Below, piece after piece: positions 9,001 to 63,627 of a stretch of 64,000 bases of DNA. The DNA is from Pelagomonas calceolata (lineage: Eukaryota): NCBI GenBank assembly GCA_918797485.1, contig CAKKNE010000005.1:1178001-1242000 (forward strand). The letters are read 5' to 3'. Each line of letters begins with the position of its first letter. Position 1 is the stretch's first letter. The position numbers and the translations under genes are program-made. The notes under the pieces were generated by a model. That model was not told where the DNA came from, did no database searches, and worked only from the letters and a program-made list of their open reading frames with translations.

Positions 9001-12000
9001 AGTGAGCGCGGACCAGGGCGGTATCCTTACTGTTGCAGGTGTGAACTATCCTTTAGAGAGAAAGCTCTTCTGCCGCATCGACGATCTTGTGGTGGAGGGC
9101 GAGGCGCTCAACACTACTGCTGTATTGTGCCGCATCCCTCAATTGGATCGGATCGGGACCTTTAATCTTACGATAGAGGGCGATGCTGGAGGCACGTCGA
9201 TCCGAGTGTTGCGGGACCCTTCCATAGCGCAAGTGACTCCCACAGCTATTGCAAGGGGCGACGTCGTACGAGTAGAGGGCGCGAATTTTGTGGAGGGCGC
9301 TACTTTTTGCAAATTCGATTCCCATATCGTGCCGGCGGCTTTTGTGAATACAAGATCCATCTCGTGCGTCGCGCCGTCGTCCGCATCGACGCTACGCGTG
9401 TCGAACGACGGGAGGGCCTTTTCTTCTCATGTCAACTTGACGGCGAAAAGGGCGCTCGTCTTCGGCGCTGTCGTGAGTGAAAGACGCGTTTCAGTAAAAG
9501 ATACGACGTTCTCCGTCGAGGCGGACAACGTGACGTGCGCGCCGCGCTGCACATGCTCCGATAACGTCTGCCGAACTTCAGAAGATAGAGTGTGTGTCAT
9601 TATCGATGGCGTGAAATCAGCCCAGATGTGCGGCTCCTTACAGAATATACCTATCGTAAGCGCGCCGCCGAACGCCGATCGAGCGTCGCCGTCCGTCGTC
9701 CACGGCCCGACGGACGTCGTCGTCCGTGGCGGCGCCTTCGCCCTCCACCACCAATGCCTCGTCAACGGCAGTGCCGTGGCAACGACGTGGCTGTCTCCGA
9801 CGCAACTAAGTTGTTTGATTGACGCCGCCCCGGGTTCCTACGACCTAAGCGTCAATGGAGGCGTCTCGACTCGCATCGAAGTCACGTCGCGGGTCTTGGT
9901 GGAGACGCTCTCTGATGTGACACATGTCGACGATGTTGTGGAGGCTTCATTATCCAATACGATAGACGTCGGCGGCGCGTCGTGTACGTTCGACGGTCAC
10001 ACGCATTCAGCTGATGTTGTGGACGGGACGCATGTCTACTGCCACGCTCCCTCGGAGGAGACGCGGGCGGATGTTTCCCTGTCAGTCGGCGCGTTGCCAC
10101 TGCACGGCTCTAGGGAGGTGTCCATCAAGGAGCCGCCCCGCATCCATAGTGTCGAGCCGCCGCTGGCGCCCGTCGGCATTTCTACAGAAATTACGGTGCG
10201 AGGAAACTTCCCGTCCCAAAAACTATACTGCCGCTTCGGCTCCGTGAACACGGAGGCGTCCGTCCTTTCCGCATCGGAGCTGCGGTGCCCCGTACCTCCC
10301 ACGGATACGGTACGCACGGTGCCCTTCGACGTGGGCTATTCGAGAGGTCAAGCTACACATATGGCCCACGCCTTCGCCTTTTACCGCCAGGCGCGCCTTG
10401 CTTCTGTCAAACCACGATCCGCGTCCATTGGATCCTCCATCTCTGTACAGATAGCGGCGCCCGACAACTTACGTTATCCGGCCTTCGCGTCCTGCAAATT
10501 TGGCGATAGAATAGTCGAGGCCGCGCGGCCGTCGTCGTCGGAATTTGTTTGTCAAGTGCCTCCCCTACAACCTGGTGCTTACGAGTTAGCGGTGGCGCTC
10601 GACGGCTCGACCTTCTCGCAATCTATGCCGTTCTACGTCGTCGAAGCGCCGTCAGTTCTGAAGGTCGAGCCGTCGTCCGCTTCTGTGAGAGGAGGCGCTT
10701 TCATCGAAGTGAGCGGCACCGTCGGCTCGTTGCTGCATACGGCCTGCGTGTTTGACGGTGTTGTGTCGCGAGCTCTGTCGGAGACGAACGGCAGCGTGAC
10801 GTGCGTCGCACCGCGAGTCCAGGCTCCTCAAACCATCCAAGTTCGATTGGCCGTCCACGGTTTAGTGAGTGAGACCTCGGCTCCCTTCACCTACGTAAGG
10901 CCACTCTATTTACAGAGTGTCACACCAGTGCGCGCGCCGCCGCGGGCTCTCATTCATTTGGAGGTGGACCACGCTGTTGATGGAAAGTGCCTCTTCGGCG
11001 ACGTGGAGACGGCCTTTAACGGACTGGAGTGCGCCGTACCTAGCATACAAGGTGTGGTGGACTTACGAGTGAAGACGGGAAGTGACGTCTCGAACGCGAT
11101 CCATTTCGAAATTCTCGAAGCTGTTTCATTGGAGAGCGTCCTGCCGCACACGGGGCCGACGACCGGTAATACGGCACTGGTCATACGAGGCACGGGCTTT
11201 GCGAGGCACCATGCTGTCGAGTGTCGCTGGAGGAGGGACGGCGCTCTCAGCAGAACGAACGCCACGGTCTCCACAGATGTAAGGTGTCTGACGCCTGCCT
11301 TCGCGCAGGGGCCCGGGGTCTACGACCTCTCCTTGACTGTCGATGGCGTCGAGAGCGAATCTTTGTTTTTTGAGGTGCGAGATACTCTAGAGCTGCTAGA
11401 CATGGACCTCGACGTGTCGACGGCGCTGGGCGGCGCTTCTACCTTGATTCGAGTGAGGCATTTGGAGCTGCCCACATCAGACGCGGAGTGTCGCTTCGGC
11501 GGTGCGACGGTGCCGGCGACGTATTGGGCCGCGAACGTCGTCCAGTGTCGAGTGCCGGCGCATGCCGCTGGAAAGGTGAATGTGAGCGTCTCGCCCGACG
11601 GCGTGCATTTCTACGGGAATTTACAGATAGTTTACGTGCCGGAGCCGCCTTCAATTATTGAAATCGTCCCTTCGACAATTTACGACTCGAACGCGTCGAT
11701 AGCATTGGTCGGGAGCGGGTTTACTCGTTCAAAGCGGTTAACGTGCCGCTTCACGGGAGACGAGGTCACGGAGACGCCAGCGTCTTATACTGGTGAAGGC
11801 GCTACTTGTCAAGTACCATCATCCTCGTCCCTTGTGCAAGCATCTGTGGACGGGATACATTGGGGACCCGGCGTGCGATTGATTGTATCAAAACCGCCCG
11901 TCGTATCAATGATGGGGCCGGAGGGCGGGCCGGAGAGTGGCTCAACTATTTATTTGGAGGGCGTTAATCTAGCGGAGGCAGCAACAGAGTCTGCAAAGTG

Positions 12001-15000
12001 CCGCGTCGGCTCTACGGAGGTAGACGCTGATATCAATGAAGACGGCGTGGCGTGCCGCGTGCCGGCGATGGCGCCCGGGACGGTTCCCGTGCTCATCTTG
12101 CCGAACGGCCGGGACGTCATACATACGTCGTCGTACACCGTAAAGCCGCGCCCAGCCCTACTAAGAGCGGAACCCATGATAGGAACGATGACCGGCGGCC
12201 ATCTGATAACGGTCCATGGGTCGCGGCTGGCGTCCCTCAAAAGCGCGCGGTGCTCGTTTTCCGGCGTTTTATCCGCGGCCGAAGTGATTAATGGCGGCCT
12301 GCGGTGCGTCCAGCCCCCGCTGGACGAGGGGACGTATTCATTGACAATCGACTCGGCGCTCGGTCTACTCGAGCCTGTACTAAGGTATGAGGTCCTTTCT
12401 TCGGTCAGAGTTGATTCGCTTGCACCTTCATATGGATACGCTTCAACAATTGTCGAAGTCGCGGGCCGCTTCAGTGACTTAGAAGCGCCGCTGACCTGCC
12501 TCTTCGGTTCGAATGAAGCGAACGCGTCCCTCGTGTCTGACACGTTACTTAAGTGTACTGCGCCAGAATCTTCACCAAAACGCGTCTCTCTACGAATCCG
12601 GGACGCGCGGGGCCGCCTGTCCGAGGGAAAGACGTACCACTACTTATCACCGATACAAATCCACGCCGTGGCGCGGGGCGAAGCTGTTGAGGCAGGTAAA
12701 GATGGCGCGCTCACGATTACTGGCCTCGGCTTCCCGGACACGCCCCAACTCGCGTGTCGAGTCGACGACATGCTCTACGACGCGACGTGGATGGCCTCCC
12801 ACTTGTTAGTGTGCGCCATGCCTCCCTTGGCCGCGCAGCAAACAAATTACACCGTTTTCGTCACAAGTAACGGCGTCGACTTCGTACCTTATCAGGGTAT
12901 TATCGAGGCGGCGGGCATGGGACCGATCATGCAGGAAGATACTGTAGAGGACGCAGAGGATCCTGTCCAAGAGACGGGTGTCGTCGTCCTCGCCGTCGCG
13001 CCCCCGAGCGCGCCGGCGTCCGGCGGCCATTCTGTGAAGATACACCTCTCGGCACCGCTCCAAGGTGTCGTCGCGTGCCGCTTCGGTGCCATCACGCGAC
13101 CGGCGCGCTTCATTTCCGACGACGTGGCCACTTGTGCTACTCCTTCACTTAGTGGAGACGTACTGTTCAGTTTTGAAGAGGACGATACGGTTATCCCCTT
13201 CGCCAACAGCGATGACATGCTGTTCACGTTGCGAGGGCGGAGCCACGCCATGCGCCTCTCGCCTTCACAGGGTGACGAGGGCACTCTCGTCGAAATCGAC
13301 GTCGCTTCTGCAAACACGGGCCCGGGCCGGTGGCGCTGTAGGTTTGGCGATATTGTGGTAAGAGGCCGAGTCGTCTCGACCAACAGAGTCGCGTGTCCCG
13401 CGCCGGCTGGTCATGGCACAGTAAAGGTGACGGTGGCCGGTCCGTTACGAGATGATGCCTTTGGCACCTCCGACGCGGCCTTCACGTTCGTGGCGGCGCC
13501 TCGTGTACTCTCCCTCTCTCCTATCATGGGCTGGACGGCGGGGGGCTACGTCGTCGACGTGCGTTTGAGTCAAAACGTTCAGAGCTGTATGTGCCGTTTC
13601 GACGACCTATCTGTGGAAGGCACAGTTAGCGATGACACGGTGCGGTGCCGCGCGCCTCCATTAAAAGAGGGCACTACGTCGGTACGAGTGACCTGCGGGA
13701 CCGGCGTGCACGAGCTACGAGTGAGGCGGCCGGCCGAGGCGTTCTCCACTCAACCAGCGAGGGGCTCGGAGCGCGGCGGCAGCCTTATTTCGATAAAGGG
13801 CAGGAACTTCCCCAACGTCGCTTCTCTACATTGTGTCTTCGGCGGCGTTTCGGTCCCAGCTAGATGGGAGTCTGACGGAAGAGTGACGTGCGCGGCGCCC
13901 TCCCGGGGCTATCCTGGTTCTGTGGATGTCACATTAGTAAGTGACGGTCTACCTGCTCATACGACGACAGCTACGTACACCTACACGCAACACAGCGTCG
14001 TGGACTCCATCACTCCTGGGCGTTCCTCGCATCTCGGCGGCGAGCTCGTATCTGTGAGAGGCGCCTTCTTCGACGCGTCCGCGAAGCTGCGGTGCGCCTT
14101 CGGCGGCCTCCAGGTGCCCGCTTCACTGATTAACTCTACTCTGTTGAAGTGCGCGGCACCGGCGAGGCCGCCCGGTCTTGTATCACTACAGATCCTCGTG
14201 GACGGTCTAGTAGCAAACGCCTTCGATTTTGTGTACGAACTGACGGCGACGGCTTATGGTATTGTACCGACGCTAGGGCCCGCGCTCGGCGGCGGCACTA
14301 TTTCACTGATAGGCGCCAATTTCGACGGTAAAACGAGATGCTGTATTAACGAAGTCGAAGTCGCGACGACATACGTCTCATCGACTCAATTGCGTTGCGA
14401 GGCGCCCCCGCGCGCGCCTGCCACGATCGTACGGATCCATGTCTGTGGGGACGTCTCGAAATTCGACTACGAGTACTTTCGACCGGCACTGGCCCTGGGC
14501 GCCTCACCAGCCATGGGCGCCGAGGAGGGCGGCACCATTGTCGAAGTGAAGGCGGCCTTCGACGCCAACGACCAAGGGATTGATGTTATGTGTCGGTTTG
14601 GTAGTACGGCAGTGAACGCGTCGCGGCTCGACGACGTCGTACGGTGCGTGGCGCCGCCGCGTCGAGCGATGGACGAAGTCGTACGACTGGCGGTCGTCTA
14701 CGACGCTAATGAGTACGTGGAGGAAGCTACTTCATTCAGATACGTGAAGAACCTGCGAATTACCTCTATGAGCCCCTTGAATGCATCCCTACGAGGCGGT
14801 TCGGTGGTCAGGGTCGAGGGCAGCGGCTTCGACGTCAACAGCGATGTCGTGTGCTCCTTCGGCGGCGTCGAGGTGGATGCTATCATTTTAGATGCCTCGT
14901 CACTCGGTTGCGTCGCGCCACCATTTGGCTTTGCTACAACGACGTGGCTGAGTGTCGAGTCGCGGTTCCAACCTGCGGCGAACAACCGAGTCGTCTTTGC

Positions 15001-18000
15001 GTATGTCGACGATGCTATTGATCCAGAGCCACCTCTGGAACGCCTCCCCGTGGTCCATGGCGCTTCACCGGTGATTTTTGGCTCGTACTCTAGAGCTTCC
15101 ATCAGAATTACTGGCGAGCACTTCCTGCCTGAGACGCTATGTCGTTTTGGGGATCAAGACGTCGATGCCACATATGTATCTGATACAGTCTTACTGTGCG
15201 AGGCGCCTCCTCGTATTCCCTCTGATGTTGAGCTGAGAGTTTCTGTTGACTCTATACATTGGTCTCATACAAGTGTGAGATTGACCTACGCGCGCGACGC
15301 GTCGATCATCGACTTTGCGCCGTCGTCAGGACCGCTGCGAGGCGGTACTAGAGTTATGATAACAGGAAGGCACTTCCACGGGCCCGCCACATGTGTTTTT
15401 GGCGAGATTGAAGTGTACGCCTCGATCAGATCGGATACTGAACTAGTATGTGTGGCTCCCGCCGTGGCGCGACCAATGAAGGCAGCCTTGTCTGTTGAGA
15501 TGGGCGGCGTCGCCGTCCACGCGCCTTCGCCGTTTGCCTACGACTACCCACCGGAGATCGAGTCGATCGCGCCGCCGTCGGGACCCTCCGGTACTCGAGT
15601 GATTCTGCGAGGGAGGCGCTTCGGTGATCGTATCTGGTGCCGCTTCGGTTCCAGTGAAACGAGAGGCGCCGTGCTCACGCGTTCAAGGGCCTATTGCGTG
15701 ACACCGCCCCACACGAGCGGCGACGTCTCTCTAGAAATTTCATTAAATGGAAATGACTACTACGGGACGCACGCGAGATTCACATATGAACCAGACCTAC
15801 TGATAACAAGTGTCTGGCCGGAGATGGCCATGGGGACGCTGGGAGGTACTACATTAACTGTGAGAGGCACCGGGTTCCGGGAAACGCTCGGGTTGTCGTG
15901 CGACCTCGACGGGACACGTTCTAGAGCCGAAGTCGTTAGTCCAACATCTATTGTCTGCATGGCGCCGCCCCATAAAGCTGGATTGGTGTCGTTGCGAGTC
16001 TCGCTACACGGCAACGACCACGTCTCGAATACTCTACAAGTACTCTATGTTGATGAACCGCGGGTCATCGAGGTCTTCCCCGACCGCGGCCTGGCGACGG
16101 GCGGCTACGCGCTCTTCGTCGAAGGGACGAATTTCTGGAACACCAGTTCTATTAAATGTGATTTGGACGGCTACAAGGTCAAGGGCCGCTTCGTGAATCC
16201 CAGGATTATTGTTTGTAAAGCACCTAGCTTCGAGACGTTAACATCCTCGAGGTCACGAAGACACGTGCCTACGACGGCATTCAGTCGGAGAGAGCTGCGG
16301 ACGGGCGATCCTTCCGAAGATTCGGAACTGTTTGAATTCGGCAGCAAGCTCCCGTACGTGGCGCGCGTGCGCATCACGATCAATGGCCTCGACTACGGTA
16401 CTACTTCGGGTCTGTTCGAGTACTACGACGACGACTTACCTTGGGGGCATTACGTACAAGATGATCATGTGCAGCCCTGCCCGCCCGGCACGTACTGCCC
16501 ACAAGGTCGAAATACGAACTTCACGCTCTGTGCTCCGGGGACCTTCCAGCCGAGGCAAGCGCAAAGGTCATGTGTGGACTGTCCCATCGGCGCGCGGTGC
16601 CCGGACCACGGCATGCGGTGGTTCCGGAAATGCCCCGCGGGCTTCGCCTGTGTGTCTTGGGGCACGAAGGAGGCCACGACTCTCTGCCCGGCCGGCCATT
16701 ACTGCCGGGAGGGCGTTCTTACGACGAATCCGCGCCTCTACGACAATGATACAAGGTGGCGTCGCGACAACGAGACCGGCGTGGTCGTCGCGTCGCCCCA
16801 GATGTCTGCTTGGGTATTGCAACAGCGACAGTCGAAGGCTTTCAAAGTGAGAACTCAAACACCGTTTTCGTGGAATGAATCGGGCACGCAAGGCTATCGG
16901 CCGCCTTCGTCCTTCTCCGAGTCTCCATACTCGTCACAGCAAGTAGTGTATGCGCCGGTACCGTTTCCTTGCCCCATCGGCCACTACTGCAAGCAGGGGG
17001 CGTCTTCACATATCCCGATTCCGTCGAACTTCTCGACGCCGCAACGATGTTATGACGGGTACTTCTGCCCCGCTGGTTCAGCGACGCCCGAGGGTTCCGG
17101 AGCATGTCCTACGGGCCACTTCTGTCCGACGCCGGTCATGGCCGCGCGGTGTCCGCGCGGCCACCACTGCCCCGGCGTGGCCAATGTGTTCCCGCGCGAA
17201 TGCGCGCCCGGGACCTTTAACGGCCTCGAGGGGATGTCGAATTGTACCCTATGCCCGACCGGTCATGTGTGCCCGGGCTGGTCTAGGACACAGCCAGAAA
17301 GGTGCCCCGCGGGCTACGTCTGCAACGCGCTCGGCCAGTCGCAACCGGTGCTCACGTGTCCGGAAGGTTATTTCTGTGGAGAAGGCACGTTAACTCTCGA
17401 CCCGGCCGACCCGACACCTCTCAGACCCCAGCCCTGCCCGCCGGGCACGTTCTGCCTCGGCGGTGTGGCGCACAACCTCACGACGCCGTGGATCCCCGTC
17501 GAGCCTTCGGGCGTGTCCGCGCCGCAGCGCTGCACGGAGGGAACTTTTTGTAGAGAAGGTTCTCCGACGGCGATCGGTTCGCAGACGTGTTATGCGGGCC
17601 ATTATTGTCCGCCGGGGTCTACTTATCCAGTGCAGGCACCTTTAGGGTCTTTTAGTGATGTGGAAGGAGCAGTAGCACCAACGACGTGCTTCCCGGGCAC
17701 GTATGCCGCTTTGACGGCGGCCCACGCTTGTGTGGTGTGTCCCGCCGGTTATAGTTGCCAGGGCTACGGGACGTACGAACCGAAGATCTGCGAGGCGGGC
17801 ACTTACCGATCGCTGGCCGACAGTGTCACGTGTCGCCTATGTCCTCCGGGCACCTATTCGACCGTAAACGGTTCCACAGACATCTCCTCATGCCTCCCAT
17901 GCCCCGAGGGTCGAGTCTGCGGGGACCAGGGGATGTTCAATTTGACAGCTTCCGATAGATGTCCCGAGGGCCATTCCTGTGGAGTAGGAACAGAAAGAGG

Positions 18001-21000
18001 TACGATGTTCCGGCACAAGTGCCCCGGGGGCACGTATTGTGGCTGGGAGACCTTGCCCCAATATCAATACGAGCTACCTTGCCTCGAGGGGTTCTACTGC
18101 CAGCGAGGCACGACGGCGCAGATGAGACAGAGGGATAGATGTAGGGTCGGCTACTACTGCCCCCCAGCAACCGCCGCAGCCAGTCACCCCGAGACGCGGT
18201 GCCCCTACTTCACGACAAGCACGGCGGCCGTCGGCCAGTCGCACATCTACGACTGTTTAATTGATGTGCAGCACGTGTGCGACAAGAAATTGGCTTCTGA
18301 GTTTGACCCCTTCGACGAGCAGCGCTACTACCGGGAACTTACCTACTCCATTTTAGACGGTTCGGGCGAGCAGACGACGGTCGGCGGGACGGGCGAGGGC
18401 GAGGTGACGGTCGTCGCGAAAGTCAGTGACTCAGCGTCCGTTTCCTTCAATTTCTCAACTTGAACTTCGCGTCGATGGCGTCAACGCGACGCTGTGCCAC
18501 CGTGACGCCGTCGACGCGGCCGTGCGAGCGTCTACACGTCGCGTGAGGGAGCCGCGGCAGTTTCGCGACGCCGTCGATCGACACAGGTCATGCCCGTCAA
18601 TATCTCGGCGTTGCAGCCCAATTATACGGCCCCGAACTACGTCAATGACACGGTCGAGGTCTTCCGGACGTGCCCCGAATACATTGACCAAAGGGGCGGG
18701 CAGGACATCACCGTAATTGGTCGCAATTTCTTCGACACCGACTTACTGCAGTGCAAGTTCACGGCCTGTAGAAGCAATTCATCGGTAGCGACGCATCGCG
18801 AAGAGCCCCAGATCTGCGCCGTGCCGAACCAACACACGGATAGCGAAGGGACGCCGTCCGCGACGCGGTGCGGCGACACGTTCGTGCGGGAAAACTCCGA
18901 GGAAATTCAAGCTATTTGGGAAAAATTACCGTCCGCGAAGGACAAGGACAACAACTGGGTCTGGCCGCGCACGAACCAGGGGGCAAGCAGCCCGCGGTGT
19001 CCGGACGGCCGGACCGCGGAACAGGGCGAGGGCCAGGTGTCCGGCGAGGACCAGCCGACGGGGCCCGGCCACGCTAGAAGGCAGTGCTCGGAGAAGGAGC
19101 AGTTCTTGATGTTCGGGGATAAGGACGTGGAGTGCGACTTGCTGCCGGGCGTTTCTCCGAATGCCTTTGGTGGTCAGTGACTCAGCGTGAAAAATGAGCT
19201 TCAACTTGACGCGGTCGGCGCGACGGCGTCGGCGCGATGCCGCACCGCCTCGACGCCGTCGATGCGGCCGCATGAGGGAGTCGCGGCCGTGTCGTGACGG
19301 CGTCCGTGCCACACAGGCGAGCCGAGACCTTATACCACATCAGAGACCGGTCGTAGATATGTGCCGCAGAAATATTCCTGGATCGAGAACAACTGGGTCG
19401 ACGGCGGCAATCCCCTTAGGGTTGTGGCGGATCGTAGCATTGTGGTCGAAGCGACGTATGTGTCCAAAACTCGTTTAACATGTAAAGCACCGTCCTTCGA
19501 CTTTCCGACGCACGAGGAAGTCGCCCACAAGTTCCGCACGAGTTGTTTATTTGACCGGTTTCGACCGGGGCCCTGGCCCCTGAAAGCGCCCATTGATGCC
19601 AATGGAGACGAGTGCCGCGGGCCCGTCGACGATTGGCACCCGACGTGCAAAGCGGAGTATCCTTCCGGAAACCCGACGAGTGGCAGTCGCACGTCCGCCT
19701 CGGGCATGGAATGGCTGGGCCCGGACGAGGGCGGCAACCTGGCCTCGGCGCCGGGCGAGGGCGTCCGCGTCGTCAAAAACGACCCCTTTCCGAATCCCCA
19801 GCAACTAGAAAATCCCGAATTATTTTGTGAGGAGGGCCAGGTCTGCTGGGATCCTTCGCCAGCTTTTGAGGGGAACGGGCTGGCCTATCTGCAGGCGTGC
19901 GCGGAGCCGTCGCAGGACTGTCGGGTCTTCTGCGCGGACCAGTCGGCGACCTTTACGACGCTCTGTAAATTGGGCGAGAGAGGAGAAGTCAACAACCACT
20001 GCATGCAGATCCCCTGCCCGGACCTGCTGAAGACGCAGCCCGAGGCGAAGTACGGTTTTAGATTAGTGCTGACTCGGCGTCTTTTCTCGCGTTTTCCGAA
20101 CTTCAACTTTGGGACGAGGGCGTCGTCGTGGTCTCACGTCACCGTGGGGCCGTCTTCATGATCATACGAGGGTCTACGCGCCTCCCGCGGCCGTGTCGTG
20201 ACGGCGTCGGTGCCACACAGGTGCACGATTTAGTGTTTGCGGTGACGGCCAACGAACTGGCCCAGGAGAACAAGTACAAGGAGTTGTTGCGGGGCCCCGA
20301 CCACCAGGAGCGGACGATCAATTCGAACTACAACCGATGGAACCCGTGCGTCACTGCCGAAGTTTCTGTCGACGTGACGAATGATGGCACGCACTGGTGC
20401 GCGCGCGGCGTCCCTTCACTTCACTGATACGACTCGTCTCCATGAGACAAGGTCTCTTGTCCAATTTTGAGCCGATTCGGACCGCGTCGGGGCCGCGCGG
20501 CGTGCCAGAGAGTACGCATTCATGAAGATGGCGTCGTCGCGAGACCATGGTTTCCACGCAGGTCTTCCGACCTGACGAGCGCCTACGCCTTGCTCGTGGA
20601 ACCGACGGAGAAGTACATCAACCAGAAGACGCACCCGCAAAAACATTTTGTTCCCGGGACGTGGTCAGTGACTCAGAGCAGAAAATGAACTTGAACTTGA
20701 CGCGGTCGCGGCGATCGCGACGCCGCGTCGCCTCGACGCCGTCGATGCGACCGCATGAGCGCCTACGCGCCTCGTGAGAGAGTCGCGGTCGTCTCGCGAC
20801 GGTGTCGTTCCCACACAGGGCGGTGCTCACGTACGTGCGCCAGGACCGCTGGGTCGCGGACCAAGGGTCGTTAGACATGGACATCAAGCGCTGCTCCCAC
20901 TTCCTCGTGCGGGAGGAGGGTAATCATACAAGAGAGGAGGGCTGGTACTTATTAAGAGGCCTCGAGTCGGCGATGCTCAGTTTCGATTTCCGCCACCTCC

Positions 21001-24000
21001 CGAACGAACTGATCTATGACGAGCACTACCGCTTAGCTATATTTGTGAGACCGTCTAGGTGCGTGGAAGAAGAATGCGATGCAGCTAGAAACTTCCTGGG
21101 CCCGAAGGAGCGGTACCCCTGCCGCCAGCCGATCCACCTGTCGAACTGGTGCTGACTCAGTGTTGAAGTTGAACTTGAACTTGACGTGGTCTTCATGATC
21201 ACCAGGGCGCCCACGCGGCTCGTGAGAGAGTCGTTCCCGCGCAGGTTCCAGGATTCGAAAACGCCGAAAAACGTTTTATTTAACATGACATTGATAGCCC
21301 TCGACGACGTCATTTTTAAAATAGAAGTCCACGTCCTGAACGGCATGTGGCTCCCGGCCGTCGACTTCTTTCGCAATTCGGCGACGGTGCAAATCACATC
21401 TCCCAAGAGGGCGAGGCACCTCGACGAGTACACGCAGAACGTCCTCGAGGAGGAGACGCGCTACGACGACGTGCGATCTCGGCGTCCCGTCGTGTTGTGG
21501 TGCCTTCACGCCGTCGACGCGACTCGTCTCCGTCAGCTGAGGTCGTGGGTCGTTTTTTTGTCGATTTTGAGTCTCTGGAAGACGTCGGGGCCGTCGCGGG
21601 GTGTCGGAGAGACCGCGGTCGCGGCGACGCCGTCTCCGTGATCGTCGGAGCGTGAAGAGTCTCGCGACGGCGTCCGTGCCACGCAGGTCGACTGGCTGAC
21701 GTTGATGATGATTTATAGTGGCACGGGGTCGTTCTTCAATTTAAATGATAAGGTCCGTGACGCGGCGTCTTCATTGACCTTGAACTTGCCGGGGTCGTCA
21801 TGATCCCAGGAGAGTCTATCCGTGCCACGCAGGACAAGAACAATCGGCCCGGGCCCGACGCGGCGGAGCTCTATAAAACGCCCGTGAAGGATAAACTAAG
21901 ACGTAAATTGTCGCCCTACGTCAGTTTTGAAGAAAGGGACACGGACCTGTTCCACATGTGCCGAGTCAGCGTCGTGAATGAACTTGAACTTGTGACGTGG
22001 TCGCTGCGATGGCGTCGCTGCGATGGCGTGGTGCCTCGACGCCGTCGATGCGGCCGTCAGAGAGCCTTCGTGAGAGCGGCGGCGCCCGACGCGGTCCGAA
22101 TCGGCGGCCTCGTCTGACGAAGACGAGTCGCGTCGACGGCGTGAAGACCGCTCGTGACGCCGTCGTCGTGATCATGAGAGAGTCTGCGCGCCTCACGAGC
22201 GTCACGCGCAGGATCGGCATCTTCTACAACGACGACACGCAGTGGCACGGTCGCGGCGTCCCGTGATTCGTCTCGAGGAGTGATGGCCGGGGGTGGTCTC
22301 TTTTTTGCTGAAGAGGCCGTTCGGACCGAATCGCGTCCGAATGCACTCGAAATCACGAAAGAAACGACCCACGGCCTCCTCGCCCCCCGACGCCGTCGAC
22401 GCGACGCGTGAGAGGAGACGAAGACACGAAATGCGCCGCGCAGGCACCACTCGATGCCGCCCCTCAACATGCCCCCCACATATAAAGATTATGAACGGGG
22501 ACGGGTCTTGGTCGCCTTCAACAGCACGTGGGAGAGCCAGCAGACCGTGCCTTCCGTTGCGGAGCCCGAACCTTCGCTGCTCGTCGAGCCGGCGTGGTTC
22601 GAGGCTGTGTGGAAATCAAATTTCACGGCGCCTTCGTGCTGCATCGTCGCGTCGACCTCCACGCCATCTTCATGATATCTGCTCGATGGCGTGGAGGCTC
22701 ACAAATCCACCTGGAGGGCCGGGGAGACCTCCGCGGAGCGTCGCGGTCGCTCGACGCGGTCCGAACGGCCCCAAACTCGAAAAAGAAACCACTCTCATGG
22801 AAGTGAGATGGACACGAGTCGCGTCGACGGCGTGAAGGCGCCGCAGCACTCACTGGTTGATTTCCACACAGGTTCGAGGCGACGCACACGGACTTCGATC
22901 TGTACGAGCAGGGCTGCGAGGGCATGGTCGGCGAGTGCACGGGCTTGTACGAGCAGGCCATGGACCCGACGATGTATATCGATGTCAGTAAAATTGCGGA
23001 CGCGAATAGGTGCTGACTCAGCGCCAATTTCCTTGAATTTCTCAACTTGAACTTTGGGAAGATGGCGTCTTCGTGGTCTCCCGGCACCGTGACGCCGTCT
23101 TCATGATCATGAGAGCGTCTGCGCGTCGCGTGAGGGAGCCGCGGCCGTGTCGCGACGGTGTCGATCGACACAGGGACGTCTACTTCGAGACGTTCTTCAT
23201 GGCCGGCATCCTCTCTTCCCAAAGTTACCTGCAGATGAAGACGCTGTCGGCGGCGCTGGAGCAGAGCGAGGAGATCATGCAGTGGATCAACGTCATTTGC
23301 AGTGTGCCAAACTTCAAGTTGTGCTTCAATTTGAGGTCTCTCGCGGTCGGAGTGACGTTCCGCTCGCTCAACTCGGTCGATTGTATCAGAGAGACGTCGT
23401 GTCCGAGTTTGGGCCGAAAACATGGCCGCGGTGCCGAGATAGCGAGACGCGACCGCTCTCACTCGGCGAGAAGTGAGGAACGCGTCGCGTCGATGGCGTG
23501 GAGGCCTCGACGACGCTCTCCGACGCCGTCGACGCGAAGATAAGCTTGACTCACGGGTCGATTCCCACACAGGTCATTAGTGCGCGGCCCATTAGCGTGC
23601 CTTATTTACCGTACTTTTCGAACTGCCGCGAGTGGGACTCGTACGTCGTCTTCCACAATTTGGTGGAGAGCGATCGGTGCGAGTTACCGCCCGAAACTAC
23701 AAGAGAGGGCGCTTTTTCGGACCCGACGGCTCCGAAGCTGACGCCGTTGCGGCGCTACGCCTATCCCCCTTTACCGCACTACGACGACGTGCAAGCGGTC
23801 AAGTTCCTGGACATCGCGTTAGGCTTCGACAAGGTGCCGCTGGCGGACTGGTGCGAGCGGCGGGTCACGTGCAGCTACGAGGAGGTCACGACGGGCGGCT
23901 ACCTACCGCTCTGGTGCGGTCCCGGCGTCCCTTCACGCCATCGACGCGTCGTGGGTGGCTTTTCGAGAGATTTTGAGCCAATTCATTCGTGTCGAGACCG

Positions 24001-27000
24001 CGACGCGCGCAGGTTCAACCAGCCCGACGGCGCCATGTTGTTTCAATTTTTGAAGCAGCCGATCAGCTACCACCAGTACACGGGGCGGAAGCGGGAACGG
24101 ATCGGCGTGAACGATAGGATGCAGTGGGAGGACCTGGGGGGCGGGACCGTGCGTAGCTCGGCGTCTTGAGGTGCCCTTCACGCCATCGACGCGACTCGGG
24201 ACCGCGATGCGGTCCGAACGGCCTCGAAATCACGAAAGAAACCACGCTCATGGACGTGAGGTGGCCACGATTCATGAAGACCGTCGTACGCCGCCGCGCA
24301 GGTGTTCTTAGTAAGAGCGCAGGACATGGACAATATAATAAACGTGGAGGTCGCGTCCGAGTTCCCGGGCGGCCTCGGGTACTCGTACTTTCCGTCGGCG
24401 TTCGTCCTCGAGATCGGCTACAAGCAGGTGCTGACTCAGCGTCCGTTTCTGTCGATGGCGTCGACGCGACCGCCGTCGAGTCGCGATGCGGTCCGAACCG
24501 GACCCATCGCCGTCTCTGATGGCCACGAGTCGTATCAATGGAGCGAGAGCCACGCGCAGGTCACGATGGCGCGCTGGAAGTACAAGGAGATCATCTTTGC
24601 GGTGCTCCACGTCCAGGAGATGCAAAATGAAAGGAGAAATGAGGACGGCTCGCCGGTGGGACCGCCGGACTACGAGTACACTTTAGATGTCTCCTACCAC
24701 CCGCGCTGACTCAGCGTCTGTTACTAAACATGACCCGAAGTTGAACTTTGGGAACACGCAGGCTGGACTACATCGAGTTAATTGTGTGGTTCGCGTTCGA
24801 AGAAAAGGTTTTCTTAATTATTTTTTTCATCGCGGGTTTTCTGACGATTCTGATCAGTGTCATTCTGTGGACGTCCGTTCGTTTAACGACCATGTTGGAG
24901 AACCCGCCTCGCGTGAGGATCTGGTCGACACTGTTATTAATTATAGTGCCGCCCTTCCAGGGCGTGCTGCTGGGCTTCATTCCCATCTTCGTGGCGCAGA
25001 TGAGTATGAGTTTGCTCATCAAGCGCGGACCCGCGTCCCGCGATCTCGGCGCCGCGTCGACGGCGTCTGGGGGCGTCGTCGAGCCCTCCACGCCGTCGAC
25101 GCGACGCTATCCTCGCTTCTCGCCGAGTGAGAGCGGTCTCGGCACCGATGTTTTCGGCCCAAACTCGGACACGACGTCCCTCTCATACAATCGACCGCGT
25201 AGCGCGAACCACACCCCACGCACACCCCGAGAGACCACGAACCTTGATTTCCACGCAGGCCGATCATGGCGGAGGACGCGCTCTTCGCGTTCATCCCGGG
25301 CTACCCCGTGCGCTCGCGGCGTCCCTTCACGCCGTCGACGCGACTCGTGGCCATCAGACGAGGTCTCTCGTCCAATTTTGAGTGAATTCGGACGCGATGC
25401 GAGCGACGTCGACCGAATCGCCTCAAAATTCACCCACCGCCATGATTCCCGGACACGACCACGCCACGACCGCCATACCCCGACGCAGGTGCGCTACGTC
25501 GTCAAGAACATCCCCATGGAGATGGTCGTCGCGGGCACTGACGCAGCGTCTGTTTCCTTCAATTTCTCAACTTGAACTTTGGGAAGATGGCGTTCTCGCG
25601 GTCTCACGTCACCGTGACGTGCGGCAGTTTCGTGACAGTTTCGCACGCAGGCATCTTCCACAACATCTTCGGAAGTGGCAGTCTCATCGGTTTGTACATC
25701 ATGCAGACGGACGCGAACAACGCGGTCATGGGGCTGCAGCCCGTGGAGTGGCAAGATCCCGTCAGTGACTCAGTGTTGAAGTTGAAGTTGAACTTGAACT
25801 TGAACTTGACGTGGTCGCGGCGGTGTCGCGACGGTGTCCGTTCCACGCAGGTGATCGACGAACCTAAGTTAAGAGCTGCGAGAAGCGGCCGCCTCGGCTT
25901 CACGTTCGTCGTCATCGCGATGCGGTGCTGGCAGGCGGCCTGCCAGATGTTTTTACCCAATAGAACTACTCAACGAGAGTTGGATATTCAAAAAAGACGC
26001 GACCCCGCGGCGGAGAAGGAGGATATATGGAATCCCAACGCGTGGAAGCGGTCCGCGGTCCCGCGTCCGGGATGGGGGTGCTGCGGTGCCTTCGTCTCCA
26101 TCGCACGATGCCGTGGGTGGTTTCTTTTTCGATTCTGAGGCCATTCGGACCGTTTCCAGTGAATCGAGTCGCGTCGATGGCGTGGAGGCGCCTGTACACG
26201 TCAAAACGCGGAGATCACACCCGGGTCGCGCGCAGGTCGAACCTCATCTTCACGAGCTTCACGATGGGCCTCTTCTGCTGCGTCGTCGCCGAGTTCTCGT
26301 ACTGGCAGTACTTCGGGACGTACATCTGGTTCGTGATCATTGGACTCAGGCCGCTGGGGCAGTTCCTCTGCGCCATCGTGGAAGAGCAGCTCCAGGAGGC
26401 GCTGCTGGTCATGCCGGTGATGACGGCGTTCGACATGACCTGTGGTGTCATTACGCTGTCGTGTGACGACTTCGTCGACTTCATGGTGCTGACTCGGTGT
26501 GTTGAACTTCAACTTGAACTTGCCGGGGTCGCGGCGATGGCGTGCCGGCGAGAGCTACACTACCGCCACGCCGTCGCCGCGTCGCCTCGACGCCGTCGGC
26601 GTGGCCGTCAGGGAGTCTACGCGTCTCGCGCGAGAGCCGCGGCGGTTTCGCGATTGTATATGTGCCACGCAGGGCGGGTATTTTATTGAATTGGGCATGG
26701 GCCTCTGCGAGCAGGTCTACTTCGACCCGGCCCTCGTCGATATTATTGATGGGGCCTTTTATTACTGGAACGAGCTCAAGGCGAAGACATTAAAATTGTT
26801 GCCGAAGTGGATTATTGGCGCTGACTCAGCGTGATTTCCTTCAATTTCTCAACTTGAACTTCGCGTCGATGGCGTCGACGCACCGCTTCGACGCCCTCTT
26901 CATGATCGTCAGAGCGTCGACGCCTCTCGCGTGGCAGTTTCGCGACGGTGTCCGTGCCACACAGGTTCTTCCGCAGAACAGGCGGCGGAGAAGAGCGAGG

Positions 27001-29484
27001 AGCAGAAGACCGCGAAGAGGGATCTCGAAGGAGCAGTGGCCGAGGGCGGCGAGACCGTCGAGCCGATCCTCGACGCGTTCGGCGCCTACAGCACGTGCGC
27101 GATGTTCACGGTCTACAACGTGCGGCTCGCGGCGTCTTGAGGTGTCGCGGTGCCTTCACGCCATCGACGCGCGTCGTCTCCGTCAGACGAGGCCGTTCGC
27201 AGGTCTTCGTCCTCCTCATCCTGATCGGTTTCCGGGAAGAGGTCCAGATGACGAAGCTCTACAACATCAAAAATAATGACATGCTGTATTTCCTACTGTT
27301 TTCCGTGGTTTTGATCCCGTTCCAGTTCATCGCGGACGTGTTCACTTTGAGTGCTGACTCAGTGTCTTTTCTCTCGTTTTCCGAACTTCAACTTTGTGAA
27401 AATGGCGTCTGCGTGGTCTCACGGCACCGCGACGCCGTCGATGTGGCCGTGAGAGAGTCTACGCGTCTCGCGAGGGCCGTTTCGTGACGCGATCGTTCGA
27501 CGCAGGCGTGTTGGAGCTCTTCCACGGCTGGAAGATCTACGACTACCTGATTTATACGCGCTATCGCTTCCTGCAGCGCGAGACGCGGTGGAAGGGTCTC
27601 GAGGATAGTTTAGATGAGTGCATCGACGAGTCCGTGCGCACGCTCGACCAGATGTGCTTCTCGTCGCAGTACTACATGATGATGACGGTGCTGACTCAGC
27701 GTCAAAAGTGAGAGCTGTCGCGCCCGCCACGTCTTCGTGGAGACGCGTCCGTCGCGTCTCGTCGCGCGAGCGTCGCGTCGCGACGCGTCTCGACGCAGGT
27801 GCAAGTGAACGGCATCATGATGTTCATCTTCGGCATGCAGATGATGGTCCAGGCCCAGTACAACGTCCGCGGCCGTGTCGACTCAGAATCGAAAAAGAAA
27901 CGAGCCACGACCTCGTCTGATACACACGACGCGTCTCGACGCCCTGGAACCGCGAAAACACCGCGTTCCGCGCAGGTTTTTGGGGACCAGATGATGCCGT
28001 TCATCTACATGATGACGATCAACAACTGCCAGGCGCGGCCCCGGCGTCGTATCTCGCCCTTCACTTCATTAATACGACTCGTGTCCATCGCACGATGCCG
28101 TGAGTGGCTTCTTTTTCGGTTTCGCGTGAATTCGGACTTTGACGGAAATGCTCCACACAGATCATCAACGCGATCATCATGAAGCTCGCGATCTACATGA
28201 AGCTGTGGCGCGTCAAGCACGAGAACACGGCGTGGCACACGGCGCTGCAGGAGAGCGACGAGTTCGAGGTCCGTGACTCGGTGTTGAACTTCAACTTCTC
28301 AACTTGAAGTTGCGTGATTGTGTGTCGTGTTCCGCAGGTCCCCGGATGGGAGGACCTCAAGGGCGGCAGCCACGACGCGTTCATGATGAATCAAAGGATT
28401 ACGTCCGAGACGTTTCGGTTCAAGTTCCTGAACTACAACCGCGCGTGGCTTATTAATCAGCTGCCGTCCATCCTCACGCCTCGGACGTTGAGGAGGAGTA
28501 GGCCCTACCTCATTAATCAATTTACACGTATCCTGAACCAGCTGAACCAGGACATTTCTTCCGATTCCGAAGACGATGGTCGTAAATTTGGCCCTGTAGC
28601 TTTAAAAGCGAACAGCCGGCAGATCATCCGGTGGTGGCTCGCGCAAGCTCGAAGGCGCATGCGCCTGCGGGAGGTCGTCCAACCCCTCATAAGCAAAGCG
28701 AGAGGCACGCAGTGCGAGAACTGCCTCAGTCGCAGGCAGTTACAAGTAACTTGTGTCATTCCGCTCGAAGTGCTCGCGGCGCAGTTCGACGCGGAGAACG
28801 CGGATCAAGAGTTCGACCAGGTGCTGCCTCGGCGTCCTTGATACGAGAATGGTTTCTTTGTCGACTTTGAGCGAATTCGGGCGATCGCGACGCGATGCGG
28901 CCCAAATTCGGACCCGAGACCACCCACGTCATGCTGAGATGGCCACGAGTCGCGTCTTCATGAAGAGAGCGCCCGAACACCGCGGCAACGCGCGAAACCG
29001 TCGTTTCTCGCAGGTCGCGTGGAAGACGTTCTGGATCAAGAGCCAGCGGTACCGGACGATCTGCATGGCCTGCGTGGCCAAGCAGCGCGACGAGGAGCGG
29101 GCGGGGGGTGTTAAACAACAAGAAGAGTTATCTGACGATGAACCGGACGGTCCGCAGTGGGGCCCCGTGTTTTTGTCGCCCGCCGCGCGGGCTATTTTGA
29201 TTGGATGGCACCGGAGGGCCGCCGAGCGGTTGTTCGGGAAGGGCGGCAAAAGGAGACAAGCGGCGGCGGCCGAATTATCAGATGACGACGACGCCCCGGA
29301 GTTCGGGCGGCGGTTCGGGGAAGTTGCTTTAGATGCGGCGTCGCGGGCGATTGCCGTCTACTGGTTGCGGTCGGCGCGCGCGAACCTACAGAACCAGGGC
29401 GATGCGGGGAAGCCCGCCGTCAAAAGAAAGCGGCCCAAAAAGGGCGAAGGTAGGGAGGCGAAGAGTCGCAAGGCGAAGAAGTAG
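2..29484 (+). CDS. Giant (>8,200 aa, 5'-partial) multi-exon membrane protein: IPT/TIG-like repeats + Cys-rich GCC2/GCC3-type repeats + multi-pass TM C-terminus
   Basis: The frame is open from position 2 (LKELTYTPCAECW...) to 18421. Predicted introns: 18422-18586, 19173-19316, 20066-20220, 20397-20561, 20664-20818, 21149-21244, 21471-21686, 21753-21832, 21958-22211, 22245-22443(GC), 22597-22871, 23010-23173, 23292-23572, 23914-24012, 24149-24301, 24428-24559, 24703-24761(GC), 25023-25258(GC), 25308-25488, 25535-25650(GC), 25761-25850, 26051-26235, 26486-26672, 26818-26964(GC), 27120-27202, 27351-27505, 27688-27798, 27865-27975, 28033-28160(GC), 28269-28337, 28821-29013. Removing them leaves 6279 nt after 18421, in frame to TAG at 29484. 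Repeats of the form 'P..G...GGT.V.I.G..F.....C.FG...V.A.......C.AP' run to ~16400, and 'CP.G.YC' repeats lie at ~16480-18200. Hydrophobic helices occur in exons from ~24760 to 28200. Confidence 0.85.
1803..3490 (+). repeat. Copy 1 of a ~1.7-kb in-frame internal duplication of several IPT/TIG units
   Basis: Near-identical to ~4779-6466 at an offset of 2976 nt (ctcgggtcgctctctccgaatacggggccgacgac at 1805 and 4781). Matching off-frame ORFs sit at 2128 and 5104. Confidence 0.95.
4779..6466 (+). repeat. Copy 2 of the ~1.7-kb internal duplication
   Basis: See copy 1. The core appears essentially identical and the edges have diverged. Confidence 0.95.
18422..29013 (+). mobile_element. Cluster of 31 introner-like repetitive spliceosomal introns (59-281 bp)
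   Basis: Shared 5' motifs: class A is GY-N2-3-TGACTCAG...TTTCTCAACTTGAACTT, class B is GY-N7-9-C(G/C)GCGTC...CCTTCACGCC. Shared internal CGCC(A/G)TCGACGCGAC motif and its inverse. Shared 3' ends (CCACACAG/CCACGCAG). Introns 18422-18586 and 23010-23173 are colinear over their full length. Confidence 0.9.
22597..22879 (+). mobile_element. Intact introner/MITE with 15-bp TIRs and 8-bp TSD, forming GT-AG intron 22597-22871
   Basis: TSD gttcgagg at 22597-22604 and 22872-22879. TIRs ctgtgtggaaatcaa (22605-22619) and ttgatttccacacag (22857-22871). Splicing restores ...EPAW-FEATH... Confidence 0.93.
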
Positions 29485-29678
29485 CGCGCGTGGCGGTTCG
29501 GGATCACGCCGTGGCGCCAGCAGGAGGAGGCAGCCAACGGTCGCGAGCACGACTATGGCTATATGATCGGTGCGCGAGTAGCATGATCAGTGTTTAAGAA
29601 CACATATTGTTATAACCCTAGTTCCTAAGCCGAGAGTAGTCCACGCAGAAGGCAAGCCCCTGCGCCATCGGGCAGGCG

Positions 29679-32841: not shown

Positions 32842-34018
32842 ATGAGCATGTACGGCTCGATGGAGGAGAGCAAGCCGGCCGCGGCGCCGGCGCTAGGCCC
32901 CGCGGAGATCAAGTTTGTCAGAAAAATGATGGCGACATCGACCGGCGACGACGACCGGCCCGCGGGCCTCTTGCATGAGCCGCAGGAGCTGTCGACGTCG
33001 ACGCTCGCGAAGCTCGATGAGTGAGGCCGGTCGGCGCGCGCGCGCCCTGTGCCCGGACATGTGCGGGTGCCAGTTTCCGTTTGCTGCAAACGCGCTCACT
33101 GATCCCAAAGATGGATGCTCAGTCGATGCGGCCCCGACGTATTTCGATCACCTCAGGCAGATTCCCTGCAAAGACGTTTCTGCCGAAGGCGATGCCTACG
33201 ACGCCTACATACAGTACGATATGGAGCAAGAAAGCGGTGTTCGGAGTAACGCGACTCGATGGTCCATGTTTCAAAGTTTCCTGGATATTTGGGAAGACGC
33301 CAACGCGGATTTACCGCTTGTAAAGCAGTTTGAGAATTATCAAGACATCAAGTACCTACGGATTTACGGCTGCCGCTACCTACGGGATCCCTCCCTCTGG
33401 GACTCGTTGGATTCGTACGAGGCGTGGCAGGCCGATGCTCGAAGCAACCTGACCGTGAGACCGCCCTACTGGCTTGGAAGGAATCTCTGTGTCCGGGGAA
33501 GCAGCCACAAGCAGTTGTCCCTATTTTGTCCGGAAGCTTGCGGCTGCCACCGCGGCGACCAGGACTGCCCGTTGACGTGCCCCGAGCGCGACGCGACGAC
33601 ACCGACCTGCCCTGCGCATCAGGAAAAGATTTTCGTGATGGAGGGCAAAGATGCGATGTGGGAGGGATATTCCTGTCCGCGCCGTCCTCAGGCGCATAGT
33701 TCTGATGTGGGCTTTTCGGCTCAAGATCTCCTGTCGCCGCGGCGGCTGCCGCCGACGAATTGCGCGGCGGCGAGCACGGGCGCCTGTCTCGAGAACGGTG
33801 GTGTCGACCCCGACTGCTGCGCTCCATGCGGCGAGGGGAGCTGCGCGCCCGGATATACCTACGCCGGTCAGTTCAGATTCGAAACCAAGATGCTCTGGTC
33901 GACGTATCCAGATTTTGACCCTGTGTGCAGCCACGGTAACGTCGAATGGGGTTGCGGCAACACGTGCTGCGTGCCGGTTGACACGAATGAGACCGCGCGG
34001 GCAGCCACCGGTGGTTAA
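32842..34018 (+). pseudogene. Cys-rich protein, possibly truncated or frameshifted (short 5' ORF 32842-33024 overlapping Cys-rich ORF ~33017-34018)
   Basis: CPDMCGC, CPEACGCHRGDQDCPLTCP and a C-terminal Cys cluster. There is no signal peptide on the long ORF, and no intron was found that joins the two frames. Confidence 0.35.
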
Positions 34019-34206
34019 ACTGTAATGTATCGTAATTCCCGTTCTCTCCGGAGAGGCATATCTAACACTGAATGGGCCCACCCCCGGCGCGGCCAATTTA
34101 CTCACGAGCGCGCGCGCGAAGATCTGCGCGAAGGCCCCAACGCCATCGACGCGACGCCGCGCCGGCATTAATAGTACTAGTGGGACTCAGATTTCACAAC
34201 CTAAAC

Positions 34207-38682: not shown

Positions 38683-38747
38683 AAAAATCACATTGACTAC
38701 TAGTTAGGTATCGCGTCGACGGCGTCGCCGTGCCGCTCAGAAAACAA

Positions 38748-42338: not shown

Positions 42339-42520
42339 GCCAAGACCCGCCGCCTACCTGCGGCCCCCTGTGTGCAAATTGCACAATTCCCTATTCGTGT
42401 TGTAACAAACTATCGCCTCATCTTTGCGCCCCCGCCGCGGCCTTGGGATTCCGGCTCTAGATTCCGGCGTCCGGCCTGCTCCCCCCTCGCTGTCGTCGCC
42501 TCCGAGCTAACAACACTCGG

Positions 42521-45389: not shown

Positions 45390-45496
45390 ACACTCGGGGC
45401 GACGGCGTACGAGGGCCGGGCGGGACGGCGTGCGGCCAAGCAGGTCCCACGGCTGCTTGGTGGCTAGGCGGCCTAGCTCTAAGCAGCACCCTTAAA

Positions 45497-63158: not shown

Positions 63159-63627
63159 CGTGCGTGCAAGGCTGGGTTGGCTTCGCAGCGATGCTTGTGA
63201 GCTGTGCTGGTCGCGGAGAGCGCTTATGACTTGTTTACACAGCACTGACGCCGGGCTAAAGTCCTTCACTCGTGATTGCTGTGGGCAGTCGCTAGTACCA
63301 AGCCACTAGCATTCGATTTTTGTGAGCCCTCAGTCGCGGTCATTTGCCTCCGCGGACTCGGTTTGGGGCAGGGCCCGCCATTGGGCGGCTTCTAGGCCGA
63401 TTGCCAAACCCGCGTGGTACCGTGACGGGCCCGACGCACCTCCAAGCCCGCCTCGGAGGGCCGAGACGCCGCCAGGGCGTCGGCGATGGTACCTTGGCCC
63501 CGGCCTCACGCCATCGCCGCGACGCGGCTCTGTGAATTTAAACGCCGCGTCTCTACGTTCAAACGACGCCGGAGTTATCTTTCAGAAAACAGGTTATTAC
63601 AGGAGGGGGGTCTTGGAGAGGTCCTAG

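Follow-up and report, generated by a model that had tools for sequence, protein, structure and literature searches.

Thirty-one related introns in one gene of Pelagomonas calceolata: a very probable introner origin, and indications that 5' ends are replaced or inherited in blocks

The change of an introner into an ordinary intron is usually pictured as neutral decay. One gene of Pelagomonas calceolata, lying in the window studied here (the whole 64-kb stretch of DNA that was analysed), carries 31 related introns, and the question raised by this locus is whether such a decay can be read from them. A first-pass annotation had proposed that it can: most of these introns would have arisen by insertion at G-Y sites, and the intronic copy of the target-site duplication (TSD) would have drifted toward a family splice motif, leaving a time series of intron maturation within one gene. 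The introner origin of introns in P. calceolata and the model of the host gene are already public.

Introns were rebuilt from acceptor motifs and the reading frame (first, 18422-18586; last, 28821-29013), and the 31 introns claimed earlier were recovered with one open frame; lengths were 59-281 nt (median 155), donors were GT (25) or GC (6), and the acceptor was AG in 31/31. Phases 0/1/2 of 16/4/11 were reproduced, as were the start of the downstream exon with G (30/31; p = 8e-15 vs chance) or with GT/GC (25/31; p = 1e-16), the split of a Trp codon as TG/G by six introns (6/11 phase-2 introns; p = 1.4e-5), and the matches between donor and exon start at 22597 (8/8), 23292 (7/8) and 25308 (7/8), together with five 4-nt runs. 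The phase split agrees with the prediction from GT sites of the host CDS (p = 0.39). Poly(A) reads and RNA contigs support at least 15/31 junctions (12 individually among the 15 of 127 joints listed, 3 as consecutive contig pieces); the reconstruction also accounts exactly for the skipped length added up over a single RNA contig, 4784 nt (sub-sums 2349 and 2051). The spliced host protein is identical to CAH0376140.1 (P. calceolata; P0122), 100% over 7218 aa without gaps, and splicing of the 31 introns is thus precise by RNA and by identity with the annotated protein. By BLAST (E<1e-3), each intron matches four or more of the 32 remaining family introns in the window; once the ends are trimmed, introns 14 and 17 drop below score 40 in the family comparison. 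The 31 are genuine spliceosomal introns and belong to one family of related repeats.

The host product is a giant IPT/TIG-repeat protein (Pfam matches: TIG and ephrin-receptor-like), whose C-terminal region is conserved across stramenopiles and apparently multi-membrane; after intron removal a single frame is open up to the stop codon at 29483-29485. Family matches inside the long exon ahead of the cluster (Table 1) are short and scattered only (16-47 nt). The 31 introns are all confined to the final 6.3 kb of the CDS (p ~4e-19 under uniform insertion). Protein P0135 (99.8% identity, 7616 aa, 26.8-kb contig) may represent a transcript or an intron-less allele; protein P0003 gave no match in Pfam and none in PDB.

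Table 1. Features of the host gene, its introns and two further family introns in the window (window coordinates; A-type, TGACTC(A/G)G-type leader).
Feature	Position	Strand	Phase	Remarks	Basis
Host gene	2..29485	+		5' end outside the 64-kb window; ORF open from base 2	
Exon ahead of intron cluster	2..18421	+		without introns, at least 18.4 kb	
Intron 1	18422..18586	+	0	A-type leader, 4-nt run	RNA
Intron 2	19173..19316	+	1	A-type	RNA
Intron 3	20066..20220	+	0	A-type, 4-nt run	reconstruction + protein match
Intron 4	20397..20561	+	2 (TG/G)	non-A	reconstruction + protein match
Intron 5	20664..20818	+	2 (TG/G)	A-type, GT donor, conserved GG target	
Intron 6	21149..21244	+	2 (TG/G)	A-type	reconstruction + protein match
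Intron 7	21471..21686	+	0	non-A	reconstruction
Intron 8	21753..21832	+	0	A-type, GT donor, conserved GA target	
Intron 9	21958..22211	+	2	A-like 5' part + inverted B 3' part, GA target	
Intron 10	22245..22443	+	2 (TG/G)	GC donor, non-A, 4-nt run	
Intron 11	22597..22871	+		intact introner; TSD 22597-22604 = 22872-22879	
Intron 11 TIRs	22605-22619 + 22857-22871			perfect 15 bp	
Intron 12	23010..23173	+	2	A-type, GT donor, GG target	
Intron 13	23292..23572	+	0	TSD 7/8, damaged 5' TIR (C subfamily); L088-L090 position	
Intron 14	23914..24012	+	2 (TG/G)	non-A	RNA
Intron 15	24149..24301	+	0	non-A	RNA
Intron 16	24428..24559	+	0	chimera: A leader, non-A body	RNA
Intron 17	24703..24761	+	2	GC donor, A-type, shortest (59 nt)	
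Intron 18	25023..25258	+	2	GC donor; body = inverted relative of intron 13	
Intron 19	25308..25488	+	0	non-A, 7/8 match, may be partly motif	
Intron 20	25535..25650	+	1	GC donor, A-type	
Intron 21	25761..25850	+	0	A-type	RNA
Intron 22	26051..26235	+	2	non-A	reconstruction + protein match
Intron 23	26486..26672	+	0	A-type, GT donor, conserved GG target; L123 position	RNA
Intron 24	26818..26964	+	1	GC donor, A-type	RNA
Intron 25	27120..27202	+	0	non-A; orthologous to L123 intron f	RNA
Intron 26	27351..27505	+	1	A-type	RNA
Intron 27	27688..27798	+	0	A leader, non-A body, 4-nt run	RNA
Intron 28	27865..27975	+	0	inverted B body	RNA
Intron 29	28033..28160	+	0	GC donor; sole downstream exon starting A	RNA
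Intron 30	28269..28337	+	0	A-type, 4-nt run; L115 position	RNA
Intron 31	28821..29013	+	0	non-A; L115 + L123 position	RNA
Glutamate synthase gene intron	62139..62376	-		same family, A leader	junction inferred from sequence
Glutamate synthase gene intron	60278..60513	-		same family, A body, different leader	junction inferred from sequence

Intron 11 is the only intact element among the 31. Its donor is a GT-starting 8-mer that recurs as the first eight bases of the next exon (8/8), followed by a TIR of 15/15 whose 3' partner ends in the acceptor CAG. In each of four DNA runs, position 22605 is the start of 23-34 contigs with unrelated flanks, so that many genomic copies with a common element boundary are seen, for intron 11 only; the summed depth of the 22605 bin, ~190x that of an exon-only bin, is not a copy number. 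The flank consensus before 22605 closes with GTC..GAC and is loosely palindromic (agreement 0.43); GTnnnnAC would be a target of the hAT type. A candidate autonomous partner, the hAT-like element at 42521-45389, carries an 8-bp TSD and CT...AG ends, with only 9/15 bases matching the intron-11 TIR. Elsewhere in the gene these features are reduced: pairing of the TIR from +9 to the acceptor CAG is 12/12 in intron 11, 8/12 in intron 13 and 4-8/12 in the others, and an 8-bp TSD supplying the donor is found in intron 11 (8/8) and intron 13 (7/8), is doubtful in intron 19 and is not traceable beyond +4 in any of the remaining 28. Introns arise from either orientation (intron 13 vs inverted intron 18, 80% over 202 nt; B bodies mutually inverted), the A leaders occurring in one orientation only. 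An origin of the set as Pelagomonas introner elements is held to be very probable.

A conserved stem from leader to 3' end was discarded as a general feature (46 introns folded; clean only in intron 11, z -5.6), and motif matches in viral contigs (two scans, 34 + 53 loci) were set aside as chance, no BLAST match to any intron being obtained. In the four DNA runs no exact intron-less joint was present among 15 of 430 joints listed; the pieces listed are essentially identical to the window, and presence/absence polymorphism was not seen among them.

A metagenome scan for relatives of the host gene gave 48 loci. Six of these (L088-L090, L092, L115, L123) are 92-99% identical in protein and 40-46% at 4-fold sites (L115, 64%), and L091 (80% protein identity) serves as outgroup; these seven contigs are genomic, with introns or neighbouring genes present. 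L091 is intron-free at 31/31 sites, L089 at 30/31, and L088 and L090 at 28 of 29 covered sites, the one intron that L088-L090 have in common with the window lying at the intron 13 position. Of the nine introns in L123, three are at the positions of 23, 25 and 31, and the other six, which belong to the same families, are at positions peculiar to it. In L115 introns 30 and 31 are present and 29 sites are uninformative; the intron 30 position is common to this close relative only. Twenty-seven of the 31 positions are without an intron in L123 (30 covered), L088-L090 and L091. Since the sister-lineage contigs are without nearly all of the introns, 27/31 positions look lineage-specific, as had been predicted for introner gain. 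Among 41 distant loci, some of which may be transcripts, one or more align across without insertion at 29/31 sites; for introns 2 and 7 no distant locus covers the site. Distant introns near sites 26, 28 and 31 (8 loci, judged by eye) are at other positions, and sharing of the site-31 intron was rejected on this ground, the distant introns being a few codons away.

Intron 25 and L123 intron f are identical at the ends (16/17 + 14/14, i.e., 30/31) with a diverged middle, against 44% at 4-fold sites. At the intron-31 position three lineages have three different 5' ends, the L123 version matching its neighbour. Intron 30 and its L115 counterpart are identical at 67/69 aligned bases, with a 24-nt indel. 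The L088 and L090 introns are 100% identical within a 1.2-kb near-identical block, and their identity is therefore uninformative on constraint; the close agreement between intron 30 and L115 may be explained in much the same way (8/110 differences in flanking bins vs 7-27 elsewhere).

Donor and next exon match at +2..+4 (permutation p = 5e-5; without introns 11, 13 and 19, p = 7.5e-4), and no excess of matches over shuffled pairs is found at +5..+8 (p = 0.36; without the same three, p = 0.88). When exon positions were restricted to those invariant across orthologues, by which exon drift is removed, 27/50 matches were counted at +2..+4 vs 19.2 expected (p = 2e-4), and 14/70 at +5..+8 outside the three introns vs 14.4 expected. 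In introns at window-specific positions 16/64 of the invariant +5..+8 positions match, whereas neutral decay since the lineages split, at 0.5-1.0 substitutions per site and with like rates assumed for introns and 4-fold sites, predicts 45-64% (shortfall, p between 9e-4 and 4e-10). A trace at +7/+8 is weak and non-significant (p = 0.09-0.12). Each of the two leader classes shows the +2..+4 memory (p = 0.002 and 0.0005), and match runs are 1-4 nt long in 27/31 introns. The TSD match showed no correlation with length (rho 0.03) or with coarse genomic relatedness (rho -0.01); with TIR integrity rho was 0.41 (p = 0.02; without introns 11 and 13, p = 0.16). The proposed correlation of TSD identity with age was consequently not borne out, the TIR value depending on two introns, and with no age gradient the set is best described by about two states, intact and mature.

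Intron 13 is at a position common to another lineage, and the L088-L090 intron at that site shows point decay toward GYRAGT with +6..+8 and the TIR start kept, the reverse of the bulk pattern, in which memory lies at +2..+4. L123 intron a has GT in place of GC with 8/9 bases matching. In intron 13 and L123a the TSD is kept and the TIR start is already altered as in mature leaders. The 18-nt start of intron 19 also opens an intron at an unrelated L123 site, and the 7/8 match at 25308 may for that reason be partly coincidence.

The TGACTC(A/G)G-type (A) leader is found in 17/31 introns, and it is tied to a body module, AACTTGAAC, which is present in 15/17 A-leader introns vs 1/14 others (p = 7e-6). 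In the window the A leaders are all sense-oriented and at intron starts; they are 9-10 nt long, about one TSD length, and stand ahead of a TIR-like remnant. Near-identical 5' tracts run well into the introns at unrelated sites: introns 1/20 (39/41 from +5), 6/21 (31/32 from +5), 3/26 (43/46 at the 5' tract) and L123 h/i (40/40 from +4), and the first 61 nt of intron 7 agree with L123 intron g, at another site in another lineage, at 59/61. At their 3' ends, introns 1 and 3 are closest to different introns (1/12, 2/3). No pair of A-type introns in the window is near-identical end to end, the best reaching ~80% over 140-166 nt. An RNA contig, from run X7 only, is nearly identical to intron 1 and has a foreign upstream flank. 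Local hopping or conversion between neighbours was tried as a source of the tracts and rejected, no distance effect being found (Mantel p 0.15-0.89). Leaders and tracts fit block copying and not independent convergence.

Introns 5, 8, 9, 12 and 23 have GT donors at targets that read GG or GA in every aligned orthologue. A TSD at such a target would start with GG or GA, so that a non-canonical donor would have been needed at first; introners of P. calceolata are reported with GT and GC donors only, which argues against a TSD origin at these sites. The class is confined to A leaders (5/17 vs 0/14 non-A, p = 0.048), a value that hinges on counting intron 29 as ancestral GT, the intron-less L123 having ATC there; with intron 29 counted as non-GY it becomes ~0.13 (one-sided, by hand) and is not significant. 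On the whole, the earlier proposal is supported as to mobile-element origin, insertion at G(Y) sites, unshared positions and a real, locus-specific +2..+4 match of donor and exon. Its graded time series is not supported: outside three introns there is no +5..+8 memory, no correlation with an age proxy remains without introns 11 and 13, intron 13 with its 7/8 match lies at a position common to another lineage, and drift toward a splice motif is at odds with a leader tied to one body type and with the GG/GA targets.

Slightly short of an even chance is given to the reading preferred here, insertion of introners with an 8-bp TSD and, in most of them, a later recombination with other copies that overwrote the 5' end from about +5; the overwriting step taken by itself is put at even. 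A cut-and-paste transposase would insert the element, and insertions would survive only at G(Y), preferably after G, since these would be cleanly spliced. Ectopic gene conversion or templated repair would then use the 5' end of an older, well-spliced copy to replace the damaged TIR together with the inner half of the 8-mer duplication; the first 2-4 bases would stay local, and selection would retain the new 5' end. Different 5' ends at one common position (intron 31) point to change after insertion. Against overwriting, similarity does not rise with physical closeness, and in eight introns outside the 31 the +2..+4 signal reaches only p = 0.07; conversion within one genome is also no explanation for the 59/61 agreement of intron 7 and L123g across lineages whose synonymous sites are near-saturated. 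That agreement sits better with second-generation elements, a possible though somewhat doubtful account in which mature introns with their own donor leader are copied whole into G-starting sites, by microhomology-guided repair, reverse splicing or a short-duplication transposase, with 1-4 nt duplicated and never an 8-bp TSD. GT donors at the five conserved GG/GA targets, all with A leaders, speak for such copying, as do the 1-4-nt match runs in 27/31 introns, the tie of leader to body, the uniform sense orientation of A leaders at intron starts, and the intron 1-like RNA contig with a foreign flank; other algae have introner families with 3-5-nt TSDs or none. It is weakened by the loss of p = 0.048 once intron 29 is non-GY and by the lack of an A-type pair in the window that is near-identical end to end, besides the intron-31 observation just given and the leader length of about one TSD ahead of a TIR-like remnant. 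Overwriting and second-generation copying can coexist. A full second round of multiplication, in which finished introns with a captured donor leader were copied to G-starting sites, including GG/GA sites unusable for a TSD-donor introner, with a 1-4-nt duplication and had their 5' and 3' halves constantly shuffled, is considered unlikely; if true, it would mean that introners give rise to introns whose further spread no longer needs the original TSD/TIR mechanism.

Point drift, i.e., 8-bp TSDs everywhere followed by mutation and selection for a preferred donor, would produce convergence and a time series. Memory at +2..+4, the move of the L088-L090 intron toward GYRAGT, GT for GC in L123a (8/9), the weak +7/+8 trace, the conservation of intron ends between lineages and a reported age-graded loss of TSD signatures in dinoflagellates all agree with it. 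Selection on donors should, however, erase +3..+6 and spare +7/+8, and the bulk memory is at +2..+4 only; leader type follows body type, the identical tracts of 30-60 nt extend well beyond snRNA pairing, no age-proxy correlation remains outside introns 11 and 13, and the GG/GA targets are left unexplained. As the sole process it is already largely refuted, and it is regarded as improbable. Less probable still is an account by ancestral introns, which the sister lineages would have lost and whose sequences introner insertions or conversion would have made alike. Four positions common to three lineages in conflicting combinations (13 with L088-L090; 23, 25 and 31 with L123) would suit it, and the protein tree of the three close lineages is an unresolved three-way split (supports 66/64, 24/46 and 46/51); these two observations together imply some loss, lineage sorting or parallel gain. 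Ancestry is opposed by the outgroup with 0/31, the 29/31 sites intron-free in at least one of 41 distant loci, the eight distant loci whose introns near sites 26, 28 and 31 are elsewhere, the six L123 introns of the same families and the exon-start G bias, which is a prediction of insertion. Because empty-site orthologues exist for 31 copies in one conserved gene, the insertion target can be read directly, and the comparison points to block-wise replacement or inheritance of the 5' end and away from erosion. The fate of introners, and with it the old idea of intron-to-intron transposition, can thereby be put to the test in an alga that is in culture and has a chromosome-scale genome.

The nearest known system is that of the same species: passages of Guerin et al. 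(10.1101/2021.10.25.465678; PMC9481584) count 956 putative introners, which have TIRs, GT or GC as donor and AG as acceptor, and whose lengths peak at ~210 bp. Intron 11 fits this description; those passages do not deal with short mosaic introns whose leaders go with a family, with clustering inside a single gene or with sister lineages. The open literature searched gave no description of pelagophyte leaders that go with a family and take the place of the TSD; Huff et al. 2016 or figure S3/table S3 of the genome paper may already show them. In Aureococcus anophagefferens, as summarised in part of 10.1101/2020.10.14.339549, the element brings the 3' splice site, an 8-nt TSD gives the 5' site, and introns are made in both orientations. 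The TSD/TIR pattern of intron 11, and intron 13 with inverted intron 18, resemble this; in contrast, 28/31 host-gene introns have no 8-nt TSD trace beyond +4 and no intact 5' TIR, and the donors of five cannot have come from the target. For dinoflagellate introner-like elements, sections of Roy et al. (10.1101/2020.10.14.339549) describe TSD/TIR signatures that fade with age, donor dinucleotides that convert over time, and a phase bias that follows the recruited exonic bases; their 4-nt TSD families have CT at +5/+6, where Pelagomonas has a non-TIR leader from +5, and within the host gene, unlike there, no age gradient was measurable. Fungal ILEs, sister stwintrons and merged Micromonas introners (parts of PMC8469720, PMC3879977 and PMC3609843) provide examples of copies that degenerate and shorten, of symmetric copies cropped by deletion, of nested or merged copies, and of parallel spread in sister taxa from one template. 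The fungal elements described there are without TSDs, whereas in the Pelagomonas gene an intact TSD/TIR member stands beside the mosaic ones.

The 31 probable introner introns of the host gene, which encodes a giant IPT/TIG-repeat protein, were packed in 6.3 kb of CDS (window 18422-29013). The exon ahead of them (2-18421) runs for at least 18.4 kb with no intron, although GT sites were abundant in it; in the orthologue on metagenome contig L123, 8 of 9 introns were located within the final 3.5 kb of the CDS. At the upstream exon ends, G was found at position -1 of 18 introns out of 31 (expected 27%; p = 3e-4) and TG at -2/-1 of 9/31 (p = 5e-5); the Trp bias of the introns results from this excess of G and TG. 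The orthologues on contigs L088 and L090, which share an intron at the intron-13 position, were near-identical over a 1.2-kb block around it, the genes differing by 8% otherwise; this suggests that haplotypes have recombined here or that sequences were merged during assembly.

Database isoforms P0123-P0125 of the host protein terminate within retained introns 29, 30 and 31, hinting that the last introns are incompletely spliced. One contig (depth 76) of RNA run X7 matched intron 1 with a 1-nt deletion; the match (window 18416-18586) starts 6 nt inside the exon, the upstream part of the contig being foreign sequence. A contig joining intron 1 to this foreign upstream flank was absent from the other three RNA runs, and the X7 contig may stem from a twin copy elsewhere or be chimeric.

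Further features of the window are collected in the table. The two IPT/TIG copies, near-identical by eye, are spaced by ~3 kb and have a GC content of 72-74%; the palindrome remnants apparently sit between genes; the non-family intron is probable, judged from the sequence.

Repeats, intron and transposon features in the window
Feature	Position	Remarks
IPT/TIG coding sequence, ~1.5 kb, two copies	~1790-3300; ~4760-6300	
Putative non-family intron	~33021-33159	GTGAG donor, by eye
Introner-family central palindrome, short remnants	34129-34159; 38711-38737; 63502-63527	outside introns studied
hAT-like DNA transposon, intact-looking	42521-45389 (42513-45397 with TSDs)	8-bp TSD each side, TIRs, ORF
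ORF of hAT-like element, 832 aa	42741-45239	minus strand

The DUF659 match of the transposon ORF was weak, under DUF659's own cut-off. The hAT-like element is a candidate for a related mobiliser, a lead noticed post hoc from comparison of the TIRs: those of the element end CT...AG, and 9/15 bases are identical with the TIR of intron 11, an intact introner.
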